Shown: positions 1-22,522 of the stretch, in pieces
Layout: each line of letters begins with the position of its first letter
Position numbering within the stretch: position 1 is the stretch's first letter
DNA from: Chlamydiales bacterium
Lineage (GTDB): Bacteria > Chlamydiota > Chlamydiia > Chlamydiales > SM23-39
Assembly (NCBI GenBank): GCA_965261025.1
Contig: OZ253438.1
Coordinates: 990,001 to 1,022,000, forward strand
Length of the DNA stretch: 32,000 nt
Direction: 5' to 3'
Position numbers and translations under genes: made by a program
The notes under the pieces: model-generated
What the model was told of the DNA's origin: nothing
The model's database searches: none
What the model saw: only the letters and a program-made list of their open reading frames with translations

Positions 1-253
1 TTTGAGAAGCTCGAGCAGAAGAAAAAGAGGCTAAATTGTAAATTTCTTCGGCATCAACATAGAGGGTGTGACAAATATCGTGCTCTATAAAAGAAAACTT
101 AGGATCAGAAAAAAAAGAAGCGATATTCTCCTTGGTCCCAGAAGAGAAATTATCTACACAGACAACTTCGTTCCCTTGCCGCAGAAGTTTTTCACAAAGA
201 TGAGAGCCTAAAAACCCAGCCCCTCCCGCTACTAAACACTTACGCTTTGCCAT
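1..253 (-). CDS. NAD-dependent epimerase/dehydratase (SDR family), UDP-glucuronate decarboxylase (UXS)/ArnA-like. Only the 5' part is present; the gene runs off the left edge.
   Basis: Not in the ORF track because it has no stop codon in the window. My reverse-strand translation from ATG at 253 reads MAKRKCLVAGGAGFLGSHLCEKLLRQGNEVVCVDNFSSGTKENIASFFSDPKFSFIEHDICHTLYVDAEEIYNLAS... It has a GxxGxxG Rossmann motif and the VDNFxxGxKENI / IEHD / IYNLAS pattern I associate with UXS-type enzymes. The start overlaps the stop of the upstream Wzc-like gene by 14 nt. Confidence 0.7.
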   Translation of the reverse strand, partial: MAKRKCLVAGGAGFLGSHLCEKLLRQGNEVVCVDNFSSGTKENIASFFSDPKFSFIEHDICHTLYVDAEEIYNLASFSSARASQ

Positions 254-3110
254 ATCCTCTCAATTCCTTCCTCAGAAAAGCCAACCTTCTCCTCTCCCCA
301 TCATAAGCCCAATCCATAAATGGTTGCAATATTTCTATTGCCTCTTTCTCTAAAGTAACTAACATCTTATCAGAAAAAGAAAAAAATGTTTTGCTCTCTA
401 AAAAAGAAAGCTCATATCGGCTATGTAGAAAAACCCTGTCGTATCTTTGTCTTGCCTGGTTTAAAAAAGAACTAAAAAACTCTGAGGTAAAAAATTCAAC
501 CGAAAACCGGGTCGATCCCCCAGAGGGCAAGTAATCAATACCCTCTCCTTTTTCTAAGGGAAAAGAATCGAAAGAAAGCTCTGACTCTTTCAAGGCTGTA
601 AGAAGACCTTTTTCCTCTTTTTTCTTATAAGGGTTTTGCAAATCGCAATTTACTACTAAAACTTTCTCTTTTTTTTGCACAAACAGTTTTGCTAAAGCAA
701 ATACATAGTTAGGACCCGATGCATTTAGAAGAGAAACTATTTTTGCATTATTTTCTTCTTCTAGGAAAAACCTCATTTCTCTTAAAGTTTCCAGATCTTT
801 GTCAGAAACTTGTTCCAAGCAAACTTCCTTTAACTGAGAAGAAATTTCCCCTAAAAACCGTTGGTTTAATAACTTTAACGTACGAGAAGAAACAGGAAGA
901 CCTTTTATTAAAGCTAAAACAAAGAGAGCTAAAAAACTAAAAAAGGAGAGAATTCCCCCAAAAAGAACCGCTTTTACCAAAAACAGTTTTGAAACAGGTT
1001 TTATAGGAAGAACTGCTTCGTCTAAAGGTTTTGACTCTACTTGAAGCAACTTATTACTCAGGGTTTTGTTTTCGATAAGCTCTGTAATGGTCTGCACCAT
1101 TTTGGCTCCCACTTCTTTTTGCAGAGAAAGGATTTTCTCCTTTTCCATCTGCTCTGGAATCTCGCCTATTTGTTGCTTTACCTGGGATATCTTCTCTAAA
1201 AGATCTTTTTTTTGCCTCTCTATTTGTTTTTTCTTTTTCGCAAAAAATTCCTCTCCTCTAGCTTTTAAAAGGACCAAGGACTGATCTAGTCGGTCCGCTA
1301 TAACGCATTGAAGCATTCTTTGCTTTTGTTTTACTAGATTCAAAGTAGTGGCTTCTACTTTAGAAGAAGCTTCTATATGAGATAAAAGCCCTTTTTTTTC
1401 GAAAGCTATATCTTCATCTAATCTTCTTTTTTCCTTCTCTGTTAAAATCGCTATCTCCTTCCGTTTTGTAGCAAGCTGAGAAAGTCTCCGGATTTTTTCC
1501 TGTCCAACCGAATCTTGTAAAAGAGTCGATAAGGAGCTAAATTCAAAAAAAGTATCTTGAAGTTTTTCTTTTACAAGAGATAGTTGCTTAAGCTTTTCTT
1601 GCAAATTATCTAAGCGATTATGATACAGAATAGATAACTCTTTCGCTGTCTGTAAATCTATCCCTTCTAACTCTTTAGAAACTTCTTCAGAAGAGCTTAC
1701 CCTTTTCTCTAAAATGGCCCTTTCTATCTTTAGCTGACTGATTAAATGCTCTTTGTAGGAAAAAAACTCTTCCTTCCACTCAGAGAAATCTTCCCCCTTA
1801 TTCTCTTGCCAACGCTTCTCCCACAAAGCAAGAGCTCCCACAGGAGGATAGGTGCCTATTTGTCCTTCTTCCAAAGAAACAATCTGCTTTTTTACCTTTT
1901 CTAACTCTTCAGAATATGCCTCTTTTTCTCCTTGTCCAGACAAGAAGAAAGTCTCTCCTTCTGCCCCTTGAAGTCGCAAGGAAAGCTCTAAGCCTTCTTT
2001 TTCTGCAGAAAGCTCCCTGATCTCTTTATAGACACTTTCTATTTCAGGGTCTAAATCCTGCAAAACATTTTGTGCTTGCCCTAAGTCTTTACATCTCTCT
2101 AATTCTTTTTCCACGCTTTGGAGCCTTAATAGCTCTTCCACTTGCTTCTCGTAGCTCTTTGTATAGGCAATAGATTCTTCTTTTGTGGAAAGAAACCCCT
2201 TTTTTTGTATCTTTTTCTCTAAGTAGCCTCCGTATTCCCTAAGGCCTTTTAAAAAAGTATTTTCTATTTCTTCTTGGCGTTTTTTCAAATAAGCAACTTG
2301 ATGCTCTCCCTCTTCTTCCTGCTGTTTTTGAACATATTCCCTATATGCCTCCATTAGCCCGTTAAGGATTGCTACCCCGTCTTTCCTATTTCTTCTTAAT
2401 AAAGAAAGAGACAAAAGCTTCGGGTTTTCCTTATCCTTTTTTATAGAGATATCTGCTCTTAAGCCCTCATAAACAACCTGCCAAGGCATAAGATGAAATG
2501 TATATCTTTTGTTTAGCAAAGCTTTTTTGGGTTTTCCCGAAAGGGTGAAAGAAAAATTAGAAGAGAAAAATGGAACCTTTAGCTCTCCTTGACCTAGTTT
2601 CTTTCCAGAAGAGGAAAATACAAAAAACCTCTTTTCTTCGAAAAACTGCAGAGAAAAAAAAAGAGGGGTTTCCCCCTCAAAAGCTACTTCTCGAAAGGGA
2701 AAGCTTTCTTTTTCGGAAATCTTTGTAAAAAAGGCCCACAAAAGATTTTCCCCCAGATTACGAAAGGCCTTTTTTATAAGACCTCCCCTTTCTTCTTTTA
2801 CCTGCAAGCCCTTTTTCTCAATTAAGGCCTTCATAACTTTTCTAGAACGCATCAAAGAAGCCACCTTTGATTCTTCTTCTGAGGAAGCTTTATCAAAGAA
2901 AAGCGCTTTTAAGGAGTCTTGCGTTCCTGTCTCTTTTTTTCTCTCCAAAAAAGAAGCTACAATCCGGTATTGAACAGGAGTAACTAATGAAAAAAGAAGA
3001 TGGAGGCAAGCTCCAATCAAAAAAATCTGAAAAAAAAGAGGCTTTTTCTTCTGAAAAAACTCCTTGCCCTCTTCCAATGAGAAAATTACTTCGAGAGGAT
3101 CTTTTTTCAT
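240..3110 (-). CDS. Polysaccharide co-polymerase (PCP-2a / Wzc-like) with a greatly extended coiled-coil periplasmic region and a degenerate C-terminal P-loop (BY-kinase-like) domain.
   Basis: 956 aa. TM1 lies near aa 24-43 (LFFQIFLIGACLHLLFSLV), followed by about 665 aa rich in E/K/L/Q heptad-like sequence. The Pro-rich motif AVLPIKPVSK sits immediately before TM2 (LFLVKAVLFGGILSFFSFLALFVLALI), as in Wzz/Wzc proteins. The C-terminal 166 aa keep a Walker A'-like VLVVNCDLQNP, but the Walker A GK[ST] is absent. The start overlaps the wza stop (ATGA). Confidence 0.65.
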   Translation of the reverse strand: MKKDPLEVIFSLEEGKEFFQKKKPLFFQIFLIGACLHLLFSLVTPVQYRIVASFLERKKETGTQDSLKALFFDKASSEEESKVASLMRSRKVMKALIEKKGLQVKEERGGLIKKAFRNLGENLLWAFFTKISEKESFPFREVAFEGETPLFFSLQFFEEKRFFVFSSSGKKLGQGELKVPFFSSNFSFTLSGKPKKALLNKRYTFHLMPWQVVYEGLRADISIKKDKENPKLLSLSLLRRNRKDGVAILNGLMEAYREYVQKQQEEEGEHQVAYLKKRQEEIENTFLKGLREYGGYLEKKIQKKGFLSTKEESIAYTKSYEKQVEELLRLQSVEKELERCKDLGQAQNVLQDLDPEIESVYKEIRELSAEKEGLELSLRLQGAEGETFFLSGQGEKEAYSEELEKVKKQIVSLEEGQIGTYPPVGALALWEKRWQENKGEDFSEWKEEFFSYKEHLISQLKIERAILEKRVSSSEEVSKELEGIDLQTAKELSILYHNRLDNLQEKLKQLSLVKEKLQDTFFEFSSLSTLLQDSVGQEKIRRLSQLATKRKEIAILTEKEKRRLDEDIAFEKKGLLSHIEASSKVEATTLNLVKQKQRMLQCVIADRLDQSLVLLKARGEEFFAKKKKQIERQKKDLLEKISQVKQQIGEIPEQMEKEKILSLQKEVGAKMVQTITELIENKTLSNKLLQVESKPLDEAVLPIKPVSKLFLVKAVLFGGILSFFSFLALFVLALIKGLPVSSRTLKLLNQRFLGEISSQLKEVCLEQVSDKDLETLREMRFFLEEENNAKIVSLLNASGPNYVFALAKLFVQKKEKVLVVNCDLQNPYKKKEEKGLLTALKESELSFDSFPLEKGEGIDYLPSGGSTRFSVEFFTSEFFSSFLNQARQRYDRVFLHSRYELSFLESKTFFSFSDKMLVTLEKEAIEILQPFMDWAYDGERRRLAFLRKELRGYGKA

Positions 3111-4156
3111 GGAACAAAAACCCCCATTCCTCTGCAGGAGTTTCCTACTACATCAATACTTGTAAAGCTAGGTAAAAGCTGCGAAATAAACCGATTCCAC
3201 TCTGTAATCGGTTTTGAAGCCACGTAAACCACATCCCCCGGCATTAGTAAAAGACTGTCATTCGGAAGATGGATCACATGCTCCCAGCTTAGAGTGTAGA
3301 TTTTGGGTTTCAAAATATTCCCTCGGATTATCTGAATATAGGACTTATCCCCCGTATAGGGAATTCCGTTAGCCGCTGCTAGAGCCTCCCTCAAAGAAAG
3401 AAAACCCGCAGGAACATTCAATACCTTGGGAACATTTACCTCCCCCATCACCATTAAAGTAGCAGAGGAAGCTTCTGCTATATAAACCTTGTCTCCTCCT
3501 CTCATGACAATATTTTGAGACATATCTCCCTGCTTTAAAAGCTTGTACAGATCCACTGACAAGGGCTTTTTTTCCCGGATAACATAGCTTTTAAACAGGT
3601 TTGCCTCAGGGGGAACTTTTGCTTTTGATAGAAGGTCAAAAAGACGCATCTTTCCATCCACGGGAACGCTAGAGAGCTGTACCATTCCTGCAAGCTCTAC
3701 TTTTTTACAGGCCCTGTTTTTATAACTTACATAAACCTCTACATCTGCAATCTCTTCACGATAACTTTTTTCTAAAGCCTCCTTTGCTTGAAAAAGGGTC
3801 TTCCCTTCCACACAAACCGGCGGAAGATCTGGAAGATATACTTTTCCCTCCGTTACCGGAAATCCCACTTCGGAACTAATTTCCTGTATCGATTCAGCTA
3901 AGTCTTTTCTTTTAGGATGGTAGATAGCAAGGAAAAGAACGTCTCCAGAATGGATTGTATCTTCATATTCTTCTAAAAGACTCTCAGGCATATGCTCAAA
4001 GGTTTTTCCTTCCATTTCCAGAATGGAAAACTTTCCCTCTTTGATTCGGTAAGAATCTAAAACAAATTCCTCGGCCCCAAAAATCTCCTTCCCCATATAG
4101 GGAGATCCACAAGAGCAAAAAAGCCCCAAAAACAAGGATAAAAAAAGCGCTCTCAT
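3107..4156 (-). CDS. wza: Outer-membrane polysaccharide export protein, Wza family (lipoprotein).
   Basis: 349 aa. The N-terminus MRALFLSLFLGLFCSCGS is lipoprotein-signal-like. A Poly_export-type motif is present (YRIKEGK...IHSGDVLFLAIY). SLBB-like repeats are present (GEVNVPKVLNVPAGFLSLREALAAANGI and MPGDVVYV). It is translationally coupled to the downstream PCP gene. Confidence 0.8.
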   Translation of the reverse strand: MRALFLSLFLGLFCSCGSPYMGKEIFGAEEFVLDSYRIKEGKFSILEMEGKTFEHMPESLLEEYEDTIHSGDVLFLAIYHPKRKDLAESIQEISSEVGFPVTEGKVYLPDLPPVCVEGKTLFQAKEALEKSYREEIADVEVYVSYKNRACKKVELAGMVQLSSVPVDGKMRLFDLLSKAKVPPEANLFKSYVIREKKPLSVDLYKLLKQGDMSQNIVMRGGDKVYIAEASSATLMVMGEVNVPKVLNVPAGFLSLREALAAANGIPYTGDKSYIQIIRGNILKPKIYTLSWEHVIHLPNDSLLLMPGDVVYVASKPITEWNRFISQLLPSFTSIDVVGNSCRGMGVFVP

Positions 4157-4311
4157 ATAAAATAGCCTTCGAACTAAGTCCCATTTTGGGGATTTCCTTT
4201 TTTCTATTCCAGATCTATTGCACCTGTTTTTTTTATCAAACCTACCTTCTCTCTCTTATTTCCTATTTCTGTTAGCAAGTTATTCTCTAAAAAAGGTACA
4301 ATCCCCTCCTC

Positions 4312-5289
4312 ATGAAACGTATCTTCATCACGGGTATAGCGGGCTTTATAGGATTTCATTTAGCTCTTTTTTTCAAAAAAAAAGGCCTGAAAGTCCTGGG
4401 CATAGATAATTTTCATTCCTACTATGATCCCTCTTTAAAAAAACAGAGAGCTTCCCTACTGAAAGAGGAGGGTATCGTTGTTTTCCCTTTAGATATCAAC
4501 CAGACAAGCTCCGTCCGAAATCTTTTAGAGAAAGAAAAAATTACCCACGTAGTTCATCTAGCAGCACAACCTGGCGTAAGACACCCTATCCTTTATGACT
4601 ATGTAAAAAGCAATCTAGAGGGTTTTGCTTCTCTACTAGACGCTATGAAAGACTTTTCGCTTCCCCTTCTTTTTGCCTCTTCTTCCTCTGTATATGGAAA
4701 AAACGAAAAAATTCCCTTTGAAGAAACCGATCTAACCGAAGATCCCGCCAGTTTCTACGGAGCTACCAAAAAAGCAAATGAGTTAATGGCAAAAAGTTTT
4801 CATTATACCTACGGGTTTCCCATAATAGGGTTTCGTTTTTTCACTGTATACGGCCCTTGGGGAAGGCCTGATATGGCCTATTTTTCCTTTACCAAGAAAA
4901 TTTTAAACGGAGAACCTATTTCTCTTTTTAAAGAGGGGAAGCTCCAAAGAGATTTCACCTATATCGAGGACATTTTACCAGCCCTTTATAACGCTTTAGA
5001 TTTTAACGCTTCCTTCGAAATTTTTAACTTAGGCCATACGCAACCTCATCCCGTGGAAAAGCTTCTCTTTTTCTTAGAAAAATTTTTAGGAAAAAAGGCA
5101 AAGGTGGAAAAAATCAAAGAAGATAAAAAAGAGCCTCTTATAACCTTTGCTAACAGTGAAAAAGCAAAAAGACTCCTAGGGTTTTCTCCTTCCGTTTCTT
5201 TAGAAGAAGGTCTCTTTCGTTTTACTTCTTGGTACCATCTATACCACCGTTGTTCAAAAAAATTAGATACAACCTCGTTGCCTTTATAA
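4312..5289 (+). CDS. UDP-glucuronate 4-epimerase (NAD-dependent SDR, GAE/Cap1J type).
   Basis: 325 aa with GIAGFIGFHL (GxxGxxG) and a YGATKKANE catalytic YxxxK. The long block FRFFTVYGPWGRPDMAYFSFTKKILNGEPI is nearly identical to the signature I remember for UDP-GlcA 4-epimerases. It is divergent from the wza operon. Confidence 0.8.
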   Translation: MKRIFITGIAGFIGFHLALFFKKKGLKVLGIDNFHSYYDPSLKKQRASLLKEEGIVVFPLDINQTSSVRNLLEKEKITHVVHLAAQPGVRHPILYDYVKSNLEGFASLLDAMKDFSLPLLFASSSSVYGKNEKIPFEETDLTEDPASFYGATKKANELMAKSFHYTYGFPIIGFRFFTVYGPWGRPDMAYFSFTKKILNGEPISLFKEGKLQRDFTYIEDILPALYNALDFNASFEIFNLGHTQPHPVEKLLFFLEKFLGKKAKVEKIKEDKKEPLITFANSEKAKRLLGFSPSVSLEEGLFRFTSWYHLYHRCSKKLDTTSLPL

Positions 5290-7844: not shown

Positions 7845-8016
7845 GTTTCATCTCAATGTAACTGCGATCAAAAAGCTCCCTTCTCTTCCTAAAAAAGCAG
7901 GGTGAGTATATTCCCATTGTACAGAATCTAGAAAAAAAAGAAATTTTTTCACATTGAGATTTTTTAGTTTTTAAAAATACAGAAATTCTTTGGTTTTTTA
8001 AGAAGATAATCTATTT

Positions 8017-8910
8017 CTAATCAAGATGATTCCGTACCTCTTCCACAGAAATTGTGGAGAGATCTCGATAAGCTCCTATTAAGGGAATATGCTCTAAACC
8101 AGGGTTAGGAGAATCTACTTTCTGTTTTAAAATTCCCTGATTGGGATCAGCCCATAGGGAAATCACTTTAATAGGAAAGAATGCTTCTAAATAGTAGGTC
8201 ATGGACAAAACCCCTGAGTCAGGAGCCACCAGATACTGACACCGATTCTTGATCAAAGAAAGCATCTGATACAAAGAGGTTTTTCCTCGTAAATCAATCA
8301 CATTTTCTTGAGGAAAAATCGGATTTTTTTGAAATCCAAATAAAAGAAAATAGCAAGTTTTTTGCGTTTGTAAAAAAAGCCTATGCCAGTTTTTCTCTGG
8401 CCAATTTCTCCAAAGGCCGTAAGAGGTTTCTGCATTGACCTGCACCCCTACAACGGCTTTGTCTTTGGGTACAGAAAACCCTGTAGCCAAAGTATCATAC
8501 TCCGGTTTCCACCTAAGTTTGGGAGTCACTTTGCCCAGCTGCCATTTTACCCAATAAGTAGGATTGGGTTTTTCTAGGATAATGTCAAAGCCCTCTCTTT
8601 TTATTTGCAGCTCTTTTAAGGTCTTTTCTACCTCATAAGGTTCCCCTCTTTTCCAATTCGGCGCTATCAGGGTTTTTACCCCCGGTAAAAGAGAAAACCC
8701 CTCCTTTAGATTTTGTCTTATTAAGAAGGTGATCTCCGCTTCGGGAATTTTCTCCCGAATCCTTTGACAAATAGCATAAAGTCCTAAAGCGATATCCCCT
8801 AATCCTCGATTCCAGGCCAATAAAAACCGCTTCTTTCCCCTTTTTTTAGCCTTTTTCAAAAGACTGTCTAAAGGATTAGGAGAAAGGCTACGAAGAAAAG
8901 TTCTAAACAT
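8017..8910 (-). CDS. Glycosyltransferase family 9-like protein (short, divergent heptosyltransferase-type).
   Basis: 297 aa. RFLLAWNRGLGDIALGLYAICQRIREKIPEAEITFLIR resembles the GT9 N-terminal LGD motif, and LVAPDSGVLSM resembles the GT9 C-terminal DSGxxH region. Its ATG overlaps the stop of the upstream GT9 gene by 8 nt. Confidence 0.5.
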   Translation of the reverse strand: MFRTFLRSLSPNPLDSLLKKAKKRGKKRFLLAWNRGLGDIALGLYAICQRIREKIPEAEITFLIRQNLKEGFSLLPGVKTLIAPNWKRGEPYEVEKTLKELQIKREGFDIILEKPNPTYWVKWQLGKVTPKLRWKPEYDTLATGFSVPKDKAVVGVQVNAETSYGLWRNWPEKNWHRLFLQTQKTCYFLLFGFQKNPIFPQENVIDLRGKTSLYQMLSLIKNRCQYLVAPDSGVLSMTYYLEAFFPIKVISLWADPNQGILKQKVDSPNPGLEHIPLIGAYRDLSTISVEEVRNHLD

Positions 8911-20743: not shown

Positions 20744-22177
20744 TTAAAAGGAAGATAAAACGCATACATTCCCTTCAGAATCGATACAAAACTTTCCTTT
20801 TAAAGCATAAGGAGCCTTTTTTGCTATACCTGCAATTTGATTAAAACAAAGAGGAACCGTAGGATCTGCTTTAGGATTCCTTAAATTCTCTTTGTGTTCT
20901 TGTAATACACGAGCAATAAAGGGTAAGCCCAAAGCTACAGCTTGTGAAAGCCTCTCTCTCTCCGATGCTGCTAGTTGAGGGTTATTGGCTAGATTCACTA
21001 ACACAGCAGGCATATAAGTAGGTGTCCGATCTAACTCCTCTCCTTCGATAAAACTCAGCTGTTTCACAATCTGATCTTGTTCTGCTTTAGACAGCCTCGA
21101 AAAAGCCTGCTTGAGATAGGCTCCCTCTTCTACCGTAAAGAGTCTAAGCATGGCCCCCACCCTTGTTAACACACAATCTGTTGGGTTTTGGATATCCATC
21201 CCCAAGCACCTTGCCCTAACAGCTAAATAGGTATCATACGCGTCTTTTTCCGTCTTACTAGAATTTTCTAAAACTCTACAAGATTTAAAAACTTCCGATA
21301 TAGCAAAGTGAGTAGATTCTGTATATACCAAGGAAGATTGGTTATTTACATGTCCCAAGGCTCCAGCTACATCAAATAGATAAACAAAATAGCTGAAGGG
21401 AATAAGAATAGGACAGTTTTTCACCGCCTCGTTCTGCTGCAGTTTTGAAAACATACCTGGCCCCCCTTCAAGATGAGTGATATGTCCGTAATGAGCGAGA
21501 TTTGCTGTTTTGCTAATTAGCTCTTTTGCTCCTTGTGCAAGACGAGCAAACGTAGGAGAAAGATGAGGATTCTCTTGAAGGATCTCTATCACTTCTTCGT
21601 GAAAATCGTCATGATCGGGAGCCTTTGCCCCATAGGGCTTAAATATACTCCTTGCCTTTTCGCTTTTCCCAATATCTCCTAAAACAAGGGCTGCTTCCAT
21701 AGCCTGAACCATCTCCCATTCCGTCATGCCTTGAAATCGAGACTGCATAAGAATTAGGCCTTGTTTGTGCAGTATATCAAAGCTATTTCTAGAGAGTTTG
21801 CTATTTTTCGGTTGTGCCTTAACAAATTGTTGATAGGCATCCTCTCCTCCATGAAGAACAAGCCTTAGACAATGAAGCGTCATAATTGTTCGATCAAACT
21901 CGATAAATTTTTTCCCAAATAACAACTCAGAGTAAGAGCCTTGTAATGTAGCCCTTCCCTCTTCGGTAACTCGTACCCCTTCCTCGGCAAGCCAAAGGAT
22001 TTCAGGATACTCTTTTAAGCACAAACGCACCCAATCAATACCTACTGCTTTTGCTTTAACAACAGGCCCCATCTGTTGTGACAAGACAGAAGAAGGAGTG
22101 CTCTCTGCATAAGCATCTGCACTAACTCCCAAAAGAGCCAAAACTACAATGAGTCCAATCCGACTAGTTTTACGCAT
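20744..22177 (-). CDS. Secreted/periplasmic hypothetical protein (Sec signal peptide).
   Basis: I place the start at ATG 22177, with AGGGAG 8 nt upstream. This gives MRKTSRIGLIVVLALLGVSADAYA|EST, a canonical signal peptide. The mature protein is about 454 aa and helical-looking, with His-rich patches (APDHDDFHEE, HYGHITHLEGGPG). No family is recognised. The 87-codon N-terminal extension in the ORF track is rejected. Confidence 0.7.
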   Translation of the reverse strand: MRKTSRIGLIVVLALLGVSADAYAESTPSSVLSQQMGPVVKAKAVGIDWVRLCLKEYPEILWLAEEGVRVTEEGRATLQGSYSELLFGKKFIEFDRTIMTLHCLRLVLHGGEDAYQQFVKAQPKNSKLSRNSFDILHKQGLILMQSRFQGMTEWEMVQAMEAALVLGDIGKSEKARSIFKPYGAKAPDHDDFHEEVIEILQENPHLSPTFARLAQGAKELISKTANLAHYGHITHLEGGPGMFSKLQQNEAVKNCPILIPFSYFVYLFDVAGALGHVNNQSSLVYTESTHFAISEVFKSCRVLENSSKTEKDAYDTYLAVRARCLGMDIQNPTDCVLTRVGAMLRLFTVEEGAYLKQAFSRLSKAEQDQIVKQLSFIEGEELDRTPTYMPAVLVNLANNPQLAASERERLSQAVALGLPFIARVLQEHKENLRNPKADPTVPLCFNQIAGIAKKAPYALKGKFCIDSEGNVCVLSSF

Positions 22178-22522
22178 AACAAAACTCCCTTTCCTATTTA
22201 TTTCCTCATAATTATGGGTTGTGTTTTTATAGTTAATATTCTCACTTTGACAGCGAGTTCTGAAAAGATGTGAAAAAGAATGAAACTCCTCCGTTTTTTG
22301 CTGAGGCGCAGAAAAAACCCTTTTGCAATAAGCGGCTGTAAATACTTTCGGGACATTTTGAAAACTCCGAAAACACCCCACCGGCAGCATGAAACCCTCC
22401 CAAAATATAAAACAAGGCTTGCAGCCTATCATAAGCAAAAAATAAAGACAGCGGGAAATATTTTTTAAGATCTAACAAAAACTTTTTTCGCTTATTGGAA
22501 AAAAAGAAGATAACCCACTAAT

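Follow-up and report, generated by a model that had tools for sequence, protein, structure and literature searches.

A Wza-type lipoprotein and a Wzc-like protein with a predicted pseudokinase domain in a syntenic gene block of chlamydiae

Introduction

Chlamydial envelopes are usually described by their lipopolysaccharide (LPS), cysteine-rich proteins and vestigial peptidoglycan, and a secreted or capsular polysaccharide is not mentioned in the chlamydial literature that we found. A stretch of 32,000 nt from the genome of a Chlamydiales bacterium (assembly GCA_965261025.1, contig OZ253438.1, positions 990,001 to 1,022,000), designated here as the window, raises the question of what the components of a capsule-type exporter do in such an organism. 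Its left end contains wza, for an outer-membrane polysaccharide export (OPX) lipoprotein, wzcL, for a large Wzc-like protein, and two genes for short-chain dehydrogenases/reductases (SDR), one of the UDP-xylose synthase (UXS) type, uxs, and one of the UDP-glucuronate 4-epimerase type, uge. A first-pass annotation, made by a model from the DNA letters without database searches, had interpreted these genes as an export locus for a polysaccharide of the group 1/4 capsule type. The analysis described here indicates that WzcL is a Wzc homologue whose cytoplasmic domain, as judged from its motifs, is a pseudokinase, and that the export genes belong to a gene block that recurs in about 70 independent chlamydial-type metagenomic loci.

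Results

Organization of the wza-wzcL-uxs operon

According to the list of open reading frames (ORFs) and to direct reading of the sequence, wza, wzcL and the start of uxs are all on the minus strand, and uge is transcribed divergently (Table 1). At the wza/wzcL junction (..CCATGAAA..), the ATG at 3110-3108 overlaps the TGA at 3109-3107, and the same 4-nt overlap occurs in orthologous loci. At the next junction, the ATG of the SDR gene (253-251) precedes the TAA of wzcL (242-240); here the relatives vary, with a 14-nt overlap in locus L001, a 4-nt overlap in L004 and abutting genes in L006. The three genes are translationally coupled. All four frames are where the first-pass annotation had placed them, and its description of a minus-strand operon with ATGA and 14-nt overlaps and a divergent epimerase gene was correct. 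The 956-codon frame of wzcL is not a product of chance, because the DNA has 37 % G+C and there are full-length homologues of 850-1000 aa. A promoter scan of the 155-bp spacer between wza and uge did not reveal any convincing sigma-70-type site.

WzcL is a Wzc homologue with a long periplasmic insertion

The 956-aa product of wzcL had been annotated as a polysaccharide co-polymerase (PCP) of type 2a, similar to Wzc, an assignment to be examined with the Wzz, GNVR and CbiA/AAA_31 models. None of these gave a match, and a Pfam scan of the single protein identified no family at E<=0.1, including Wzz (PF02706) and GNVR (PF13807). Other signals were weak: the match to the tyrosine-autokinase domain model TIGR03018 of NCBIfam (E 8.6e-6, 25 bits) was far below its cut-off of 231, and a single-sequence search of the PDB gave a marginal match to the kinase domain of VpsO (E 0.009). 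Word-indexed searches for homologues of this low-complexity, coiled-coil protein returned two matches with the single sequence and seven with an 88-sequence profile. An exhaustive HMMER search found 868 WzcL clusters at 50 % identity, 526 of them with E<1e-30 and nearly all consisting of full-length proteins of 850-1000 aa; where a cluster has a name, it is Chlamydiota or Chlamydiae bacterium. A profile search of genome contigs matched only the metagenome-assembled genome (MAG) that was already known and a Wzc from an Opitutaceae.

The relationship with Wzc was evident at the level of the family, for which we used a profile and alignment of 88 members. The profile matched the full-length Wzc of E. 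coli K30 (7nhr) with E 1.1e-35 and in two blocks, with positions 22-369 corresponding to residues 28-367 of Wzc and positions 639-902 to residues 345-641. The AlphaFold2 (AF2) model built from the same alignment has a pLDDT of 85, and a Foldseek search with it retrieved full-length Wzc structures as the top 28 PDB matches, followed by isolated domains of bacterial tyrosine (BY) kinases; the best match was 9r68_I (E 2e-26, TM-score 0.46 on the target). The topology is also that of Wzc: a first transmembrane segment (TM1), a periplasmic part of ca. 660 residues, a proline motif, a second transmembrane segment (TM2) and a cytoplasmic domain of ca. 210 residues. In the proline motif, P695, D697, A699 and P702 show little or no variation, and the motif and TM2 align with DNAVTDPNPVRPK and TM2 of Wzc. 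The profile match, the fold match and the matching topology indicate that WzcL is a genuine homologue of Wzc and has a PCP-2a architecture; the earlier assignment is thus supported by the family profile and the fold, and not by the Pfam scan of the single protein.

Between the two blocks, WzcL contains a periplasmic insertion of ca. 270 residues beyond those of E. coli Wzc, all helical in the AF2 model. The insertion is present in all 88 aligned members, with a gap fraction of 0.04, and is conserved like the rest of the protein.

The cytoplasmic domain of WzcL has lost the kinase motifs

The cytoplasmic domain of WzcL is related to those of Etk, Wzc, BceF and CapAB, with E values of 1e-9 to 1e-11 by profile and ca. 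1e-8 by fold. Its P-loop position reads ASGPNYV in the window and has the consensus GxGPDYS in the family, where the counts per column among the 88 sequences are 64 G, 71 G, 67 P, 80 D or N, 82 Y or F, and 71 S or A. In all these columns together, Lys occurs once and Thr a few times, and GK[ST] never; the Walker A pattern G.{4}GK[ST] was likewise absent from 151 WzcL representatives and from 48 metagenomic ORFs. The Walker B motif (hhhhDxxP) had no match, since the window has RVFLHSRY and the column for the Asp is hydrophobic across the family. At the position of Walker A' (hhhhDxDxR), the window has VVNCDLQ, with the second Asp, which is present in only 37 of the 88 members, and without the first Asp and the Arg. 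No C-terminal tyrosine cluster was found either in the window protein, which ends in ..FLRKELRGYGKA, or in the family, with at most three, and mostly none or one, Tyr in the last 25 residues. The oligomerization motif EX2RX2R is retained as ETLREMR, with E774 and R777 conserved in at least 90 % of the members and a third Arg that is variable. A gene for a Wzb/Etp phosphatase was found neither in the 32-kb window nor in the flanks of the relatives.

These data lead us to consider that WzcL is not a kinase, as predicted from its motifs, but a PCP-2 protein fused to a BY pseudokinase. The cytoplasmic domain is nearly free of gaps, and its conservation matches that of the other parts of WzcL (ca. 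30 % mean pairwise identity); since this also applies to the insertion, the pseudokinase appears to be maintained and not decaying. Export would then probably not be switched by tyrosine phosphorylation, and the canonical group 1/4 route, cycled by phosphorylation, does not fit a family that lacks throughout the Walker A Lys, the Walker B Asp and the tyrosine cluster.

Wza is an outer-membrane lipoprotein under strong constraint

The identification of the 349-aa product of wza as an outer-membrane lipoprotein of the Wza family was borne out. The three Pfam domains expected for it scored above their cut-offs: Poly_export (PF02563; 31.8 bits against 28, residues 63-144), SLBB_2 (56.7 bits against 27, in two stretches) and Wza_C (PF18412; 31.8 bits against 25.8, E 1.2e-7, residues 316-335). 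The protein also matches the Wza-type model PRK15078 of NCBIfam (E 4e-32) and, over residues 58-335, E. coli Wza (2J58; E 1.6e-23), and it shares 63-83 % identity with over 120 clusters of the chlamydial type. The motif KPITEWNRFISQLLPSF in its C-terminal segment is invariant across the family and aligns with WNRVISQLVPT, at the start of D4 of 2J58. The N-terminus (MRALFLSLFLGLFCSC) places Cys16 in register with the cysteine of an L-S-S-C lipobox kept in 96 of 103 full-length homologues; the lipoprotein signal was judged from this alignment and not with a dedicated predictor. The public gene call, of 329 aa, begins at M21 and thereby omits the signal peptide; it is probably truncated, the 349-aa form with signal peptide and lipobox being the likely real one. 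From its sequence, the protein can be assigned to the class-1 OPX lipoproteins (classification scheme in PMC9603273); no domain of E. coli Wza is missing from it.

The export genes occupy a conserved block

Synteny was examined in loci fetched via members of the families, plus 75 metagenomic loci found by alignment with Wza, and the counts were taken from the gene tables by inspection. The recurrent order comprises ruvA-ruvC; a GT9 glycosyltransferase gene, a GT9-like gene, often a UDPGP-family gene, gpsA and yjeF; uge, divergent from wza-wzcL-uxs; pbp2, convergent with these; and rpsB-tsf-frr, with pyrH before frr in some cases. Of 67 loci, 63 have wzcL immediately after wza; uxs comes after wzcL in 38 of 47 loci, and a divergent uge lies upstream in 47 of 49. 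Next to uxs, all relatives have the convergent pbp2, with rpsB-tsf-frr beyond it. The operon is therefore composed of three genes and ends at pbp2, with no leftward continuation into biosynthetic genes. On the basis of this synteny in the relatives we rejected that the locus extends beyond the left edge of the window with genes for glycosyltransferases, Wzx or Wzy, as had been contemplated in the first-pass annotation.

The genes of the block evolve at very different rates. In comparisons with deep lineages, identity was about 67 % for wza, 63-69 % for gpsA, 71-78 % for rpsB, 53-59 % for tsf, 50-56 % for uge, 40-42 % for pbp2 and 30-32 % for wzcL. Between the window and L001, wza was the most conserved gene of the neighbourhood (83 %), followed by gpsA (80 %), uge and the uxs fragment (77 % each), with wzcL as the least conserved (52.5 %); wzcL was the fastest-evolving gene in all the lineages compared. 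As deduced from these identities, Wza is under a constraint of housekeeping grade, comparable to that of ribosomal protein S2.

Several loci depart from the common order. In L085 (10001-11674) and L086 (1-1438), wzcL is missing or reduced to a 140-aa remnant and uxs lies directly after a truncated wza; either the PCP was really lost there or the assembly is at fault. In L077 (2878-4200), wzcL is replaced after wza by a gene for a protein with F-box and WD40 domains, a eukaryote-like combination. In two loci without uxs, L063 (13532-14635) and L064 (4905-6017), wzcL is followed by a gene for a D-Ala-D-Ala ligase; together with the constant pbp2, this puts the export genes beside genes for peptidoglycan. 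The UDPGP-family (UDP-sugar pyrophosphorylase) gene is found between the GT9-like gene and gpsA in many lineages (e.g., L004 3078-4172 and L006 4261-5400); both the window (7845-8016) and L001 have only a short spacer in this slot, indicating that the gene was lost from the block in this lineage.

The predicted epimerase has intact motifs and the UXS-like protein has probably lost catalysis

The product of the divergent gene matches the Pfam Epimerase family (E 6e-47) and the structures 5u4q, from K. pneumoniae (E 1.9e-73), and 6zl6, from B. cereus (E 4.4e-45). Its motifs GIAGFIGFH, SSSSVYG, YGATK (the catalytic YxxxK) and FFTVYGPWGRPDMA are intact. We take these entries and motifs to be those of UDP-glucuronate 4-epimerases, and we accept for this SDR the epimerase function proposed from the DNA alone, as a prediction from its sequence.

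The SDR gene cut by the left edge had been described as UXS/ArnA-like. An NCBIfam scan and the match of its orthologue from L001 with human UXS1 (4gll; E 4.1e-81, ca. 43 % identity) support the UXS type, and an ArnA-like identity was discarded. The 84 visible residues are 77 % identical to this orthologue, which has lost the catalytic Tyr, Glu and Arg: it has CFEEGKR for CYDEGKR, in which Phe replaces the catalytic Tyr, SSS for TSE, EGGGVIAQ for NDGRVVSN (GGG for DGR) and FASY for PASP. It is also unusually diverged, with 48 % identity to other lineages versus 65 %, and the UXS of L004, L006, L008 and L010 have a canonical active site (TSE, YDEGK). The fragment in the window shares with L001 the altered NAD site, with FSSARASQ replacing LASPxHYQ (NLASFSSARASQ versus NLA[SC][PL]ASPxHYQ). 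Given the losses in the nearest orthologue and this shared motif, UDP-xylose synthesis in this organism is doubtful, and we infer that the UXS-like protein may be catalytically inactive. The first-pass annotation had both enzymes using UDP-glucuronate (UDP-GlcA), to yield UDP-galacturonate (UDP-GalA) and either UDP-xylose (UDP-Xyl) or a 4-keto-pentose; the epimerase half of this scheme holds, and the UDP-Xyl or 4-keto-pentose half is doubtful here due to the L001-type degeneration.

The chlamydial UXS end in a conserved acidic tail that human UXS1 does not have, EEDAFLSL, or EEDASLSSGT in L006 (Table 1). That this tail is a docking peptide, perhaps for the adjacent pseudokinase, is pure speculation.

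Assembly genes are absent, except for a Wzy_C gene in one clade

Glycosyltransferase matches in the window are confined to a pair of adjacent GT9 genes (8017-9940, -). The upstream one (8903-9940) scores above the cut-off of the heptosyltransferase II model (TIGR02195, 206 bits against 134.6), and the second is weakly GT9-like. The pair belongs to the same conserved block in nearly all related loci and suggests an LPS inner core that contains heptose. The window does not contain candidates for Wzx or Wzy, none of its family-less ORFs being polytopic, and its only Ugd-like signal was a spurious weak match inside lpdA. The first-pass annotation was right in that Wzx, Wzy, an initiating transferase, Ugd and glycosyltransferases other than the GT9 pair are absent from the window. 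The gene set of a group 1/4 capsule locus (Wzx, Wzy, an initiating phosphoglycosyltransferase and serotype glycosyltransferases) is lacking in the window and in the 10-kb flanks of the relatives.

Nine loci of one clade, with a wza 56-63 % identical to that of the window, do not have uxs. Four of these (L066, L068, L070 and L071) contain, between wzcL and pbp2, a gene for a membrane protein of 480-551 aa of the Wzy_C family (PF04932; E 3e-16 to 5e-18, above the gathering score), with weak matches to NCBIfam models for an 'O-glycosylation ligase'. The Wzy_C family contains O-antigen polymerases and ligases, and this linkage is the sole direct genomic tie of the export pair to an enzyme of glycan assembly. 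No Wzy_C homologue was found in the window or in the other loci.

Table 1. Coordinates of the features of the export locus in the window, and of UXS genes with an acidic tail in related loci.
Feature	Position	Strand	Evidence or remarks
UXS-type SDR gene, 5' end	1-253	-	84 codons visible, gene cut by the left edge; Rossmann motif GGAGFLGSH
Overlap of wzcL stop and uxs-like start	240-253	-	14 nt
wzcL	240-3110	-	956 aa; PCP-2 with predicted fused BY pseudokinase
BY-kinase-fold cytoplasmic domain	243-884	-	No catalytic motifs; profile and fold matches to BY kinases
Degenerate P-loop position	702-722	-	ASGPNYV; family consensus GxGPDYS
TM2 of WzcL (residues 708-742)	885-989	-	Hydropathy; the PCP proline motif LDEAVLPIKPVSK lies before it
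Periplasmic helical insertion (ca. residues 381-640)	1191-1970	-	Family-specific; gap between profile positions 369 and 639
TM1 of WzcL (residues 24-47)	2970-3041	-	Hydropathy; AF2 helix 23-43; aligns with TM1 of Wzc
ATGA start/stop overlap, wza/wzcL	3107-3110	-	Direct sequence reading
wza	3107-4156	-	349 aa; predicted class-1 OPX outer-membrane lipoprotein
C-terminal segment of Wza (Wza_C, residues 316-349)	3110-3211	-	Predicted amphipathic helix spanning the outer membrane
Signal peptide and lipobox of Wza	4109-4156	-	MRALFLSLFLGLFCS, then C16
Divergent intergenic region, wza/uge	4157-4311	.	155 bp
uge	4312-5289	+	325 aa; predicted UDP-glucuronate 4-epimerase-type SDR
UXS gene with acidic tail, L001	12804-13790		
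UXS gene with acidic tail, L006	12834-13802		
UXS gene with acidic tail, L008	5628-6620		
UXS gene with acidic tail, L010	5807-6793		

Other features of the window

The window has a G+C content of 36-42 % and ordinary housekeeping genes of the chlamydial type, such as secA, psd, ispF, murA, glgC, lipA, lpdA, ruvA, mnmE and nth. Searches for plasmid sequences, tRNA genes and Rfam elements were negative. Homopolymer runs (at least 8 A/T or 7 G/C) numbered 41. GC skew is negative nearly throughout positions 1-32000 (cumulative value, -4.3) and the majority of the genes are on the minus strand, which is consistent with a location within one replichore, without a skew switch. Within the coding sequence of wzcL, at 2655-2678 (-), there is a GC hairpin that resembles a terminator, with nine T in a row behind it (GAGGGGGAAACCCCTC TTTTTTTTT); the segment encodes the conserved stretch EGETPLFF, and the hairpin is probably coincidental.

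Two overlapping ORFs of 358 and 479 aa (10108-12616, +) have no Pfam family and no transmembrane segment, and are 31-33 % identical to their counterparts in L001, versus 60-83 % for the neighbouring genes; they are fast-evolving, lineage-specific proteins and possibly effectors. Finally, a gene for a 564-aa DUF6829 protein (20744-22438, -; E 1e-36) lies between lpdA and a small zinc-ribbon gene.

Discussion

The chlamydial locus resembles the Wza-Wzc system of E. coli for group 1 capsule and colanic acid (2J58, 7NHR, 9R6x) in having adjacent, translationally coupled genes, an OPX lipoprotein with Poly_export and SLBB domains and a C-terminal helix, and a partner with TM1, a periplasmic alpha/beta and helical domain, the proline motif, TM2 and a cytoplasmic domain with a P-loop fold. 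It differs in the ca. 270 additional helical residues in the periplasm, in the absence of the Walker A Lys, the Walker B Asp and the Tyr cluster, in the lack of nearby genes for Wzb, Wzx, Wzy and glycosyltransferases, and in its conserved housekeeping neighbourhood, as opposed to a variable capsule island. The loss of kinase motifs has parallels in PCP-2 systems that are independent of phosphorylation, EcpK/EpsV from Myxococcus xanthus and HfsB/HfsA from Caulobacter, in which the BY pseudokinases EcpK and HfsB are defined as scaffolds for the PCP-2 proteins (PMC12004946); WzcL has the BY-kinase fold without Walker motifs or Tyr tail, as they do. The same source, citing Cuthbertson 2009, also mentions PCP variants with a fused pseudokinase, such as SMc01795 from S. 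meliloti and VV1_2305 from V. vulnificus, to which WzcL is similar, by description and not by sequence comparison, in combining the pseudokinase and the transmembrane and periplasmic part in one polypeptide. Traits of its own, with respect to the pseudokinase PCP-2 proteins described, are the conserved GxGPDYS at the P-loop position and the long periplasmic insertion. The OPX partners also differ, the myxobacterial EcpK/EpsV system having a class-3 OPX protein and a beta-barrel and the chlamydial locus a class-1 Wza. The predicted epimerase, with its intact YxxxK and FFTVYGPWGRPDMA, is similar to the 6ZL6 series and 5U4Q. Compared with human UXS1 (2B69/4GLL), the UXS from other lineages keep TSE and YDEGK, and that from L001 has F, SSS and GGG, a state that probably extends to the window.

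We favour the interpretation that the locus is a conduit for the passage of a conserved acidic glycan across the envelope, independent of tyrosine phosphorylation, with the missing functions encoded elsewhere, and that the block is a conserved core feature of the non-Chlamydiaceae Chlamydiota; we give this explanation, taken as a whole, a probability of roughly 0.55. From the sequences and the model, WzcL would assemble into a ring and dock, through its long helical periplasmic domain, onto an octameric Wza, and its pseudokinase would act as a scaffold, by analogy with what is proposed for EcpK/EpsV and for the fused pseudokinase PCP-2 proteins. The cargo would be a lipid-linked acidic glycan, with galacturonate provided by the epimerase and, in most lineages, xylose provided by UXS; in the lineage of the window the glycan is likely devoid of xylose, since its UXS-like protein has probably lost catalysis. 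Polymerization or ligation of the glycan may be due to a Wzy_C-family protein, whose gene adjoins wzcL in some lineages and, in this genome, would lie outside the window if it exists; the genes for the Wzx, Wzy, transferase and Ugd functions would be at other sites of the genome. Several points weigh against this interpretation. Neither the window nor, in any relative, the 10 kb around the locus contains a gene for Wzx, an initiating transferase, a dedicated GT2/GT4 glycosyltransferase or Ugd, and the location of these genes elsewhere in the 1.42-Mb genome, together with that of Wzy, is an assumption. The link to Wzy_C is limited to four loci of one clade, and PF04932 also covers ligases of the WaaL type. 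The polysaccharide cargo is predicted from the genes alone, and the oligomeric state of WzcL, its docking onto Wza and its lack of ATP binding are deduced from sequence and from a monomer model.

The locus could also be read in terms of LPS. The epimerase and the UXS would then feed UDP-GalA and UDP-Xyl to the LPS core or to a short O-chain, which the neighbouring GT9 enzymes would build and a ligase of the WaaL type (Wzy_C) would attach, with Wza and WzcL either moving an LPS-related 'O-antigen capsule', similar to group 4 or K-LPS, or being unrelated to these sugars. This agrees with the maintenance of the GT9 pair, one member scoring above the heptosyltransferase II cut-off, in the same block of nearly all loci, with the weak 'O-glycosylation ligase' matches of the Wzy_C proteins, and with 5u4q being the best structural relative of the epimerase, as the Klebsiella enzyme feeds GalA into the LPS core. 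However, it is uxs that is translationally coupled to wzcL, and the GT9 genes are 4-5 kb away, beyond yjeF and gpsA, and could be plain inner-core enzymes; besides, a PCP-2 and OPX pair has no known role in ordinary LPS transport. We regard a role in LPS as unlikely. Still less probable is that Wza and WzcL were re-purposed as a constitutive envelope component, either a tether or a non-capsular channel, with the SDR genes as retained neighbours. Such a change would agree with a Wza conserved at housekeeping level (ca. 67 %, like rpsB) alongside a PCP partner diverged to ca. 30 %, with neighbours that are housekeeping genes (pbp2, rpsB, gpsA) and not a variable glycan island, with the absence of biosynthetic genes alongside, and with the loss of kinase regulation in a protein with a conserved periplasmic insertion. 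It does not account for the conserved coupling to a gene for a sugar-nucleotide enzyme, for the presence, in 47 of 49 loci, of a divergent gene for a UDP-GlcA epimerase or for the Wzy_C genes that occupy the same slot in four loci, and all characterized Wza/PCP-2 pairs are polysaccharide exporters.

To our judgement, the least probable of these alternatives is that the system is being lost in this reduced genome, with genes that look intact but are relics, nearly or wholly without function. Signs of decay would be the nearest UXS orthologue, devoid of the catalytic Tyr, Glu and Arg and evolving faster (48 % versus 65 %), the absence from the block, here and in L001, of the UDPGP gene of other lineages, the low conservation of wzcL between the window and L001 (52.5 %), and the deletion of wzcL or its reduction to a remnant in L085 and L086. 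Yet all the frames in the window are intact and of full length, wza is the most conserved gene in the comparison with L001 (83 %), with uge and the uxs fragment at 77 %, and the fast evolution of wzcL occurs in all lineages and not in this one alone. Going further than the export of an acidic glycan that we favour, the class-1 Wza and the elongated, kinase-dead PCP-2 with its GxGPDYS motif could be a core envelope machine of the environmental Chlamydiota, conserved almost like housekeeping genes and supplied with sugars derived from UDP-GlcA, that exports a conserved acidic 'chlamydial capsule' or glycocalyx and that the Chlamydiaceae lost when adapting to vertebrates, with the extra 270 residues fitting the unusual chlamydial periplasm; we put this forward as a tentative and rather doubtful extension.

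Part of this picture was already known, namely the presence of Wza in environmental chlamydiae and the existence of fused pseudokinase PCP-2 proteins. Proteins from related MAGs were already named 'wza [Parachlamydiales bacterium]', and our search of the literature on chlamydial capsule, Wzc and exopolysaccharide found only one listing of Wza, from 2009. In that survey, Wza appears as the lipoprotein cluster pCOMP 024, present in Parachlamydiaceae and not in Chlamydiaceae, with experimental support (Heinz et al., 2009; PMC2811131), and the Wza from the window probably belongs to the same family. It lists the outer-membrane protein only, and its passages retrieved by term search do not mention a partner PCP, a pseudokinase, the SDR genes or synteny. 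The statement in the first-pass annotation that capsule-like export machinery lies outside the classical picture of the Chlamydiaceae envelope must therefore be qualified, as Wza had been listed for non-Chlamydiaceae.

What is new is the recognition of the chlamydial partner as a predicted pseudokinase, with its own GxGPDYS motif and a periplasmic extension of ca. 270 residues. New too are the conservation of the block across the phylum, at a level like that of housekeeping genes, and a loss of the UXS active site that is specific to one lineage. The genome studied here adds less by itself: it is one reduced-genome member of the family, with signs of having lost the xylose branch. For the family, WzcL (at least 526 clusters at 50 % identity) is a large natural set in which to study PCP-2 function without tyrosine phosphorylation. 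The OPX/PCP pair and the two enzymes of the UDP-glucuronate family are among the most syntenically stable blocks in non-Chlamydiaceae chlamydiae, and they are a testable candidate for an unrecognized surface glycan in chlamydiae associated with amoebae and invertebrates.

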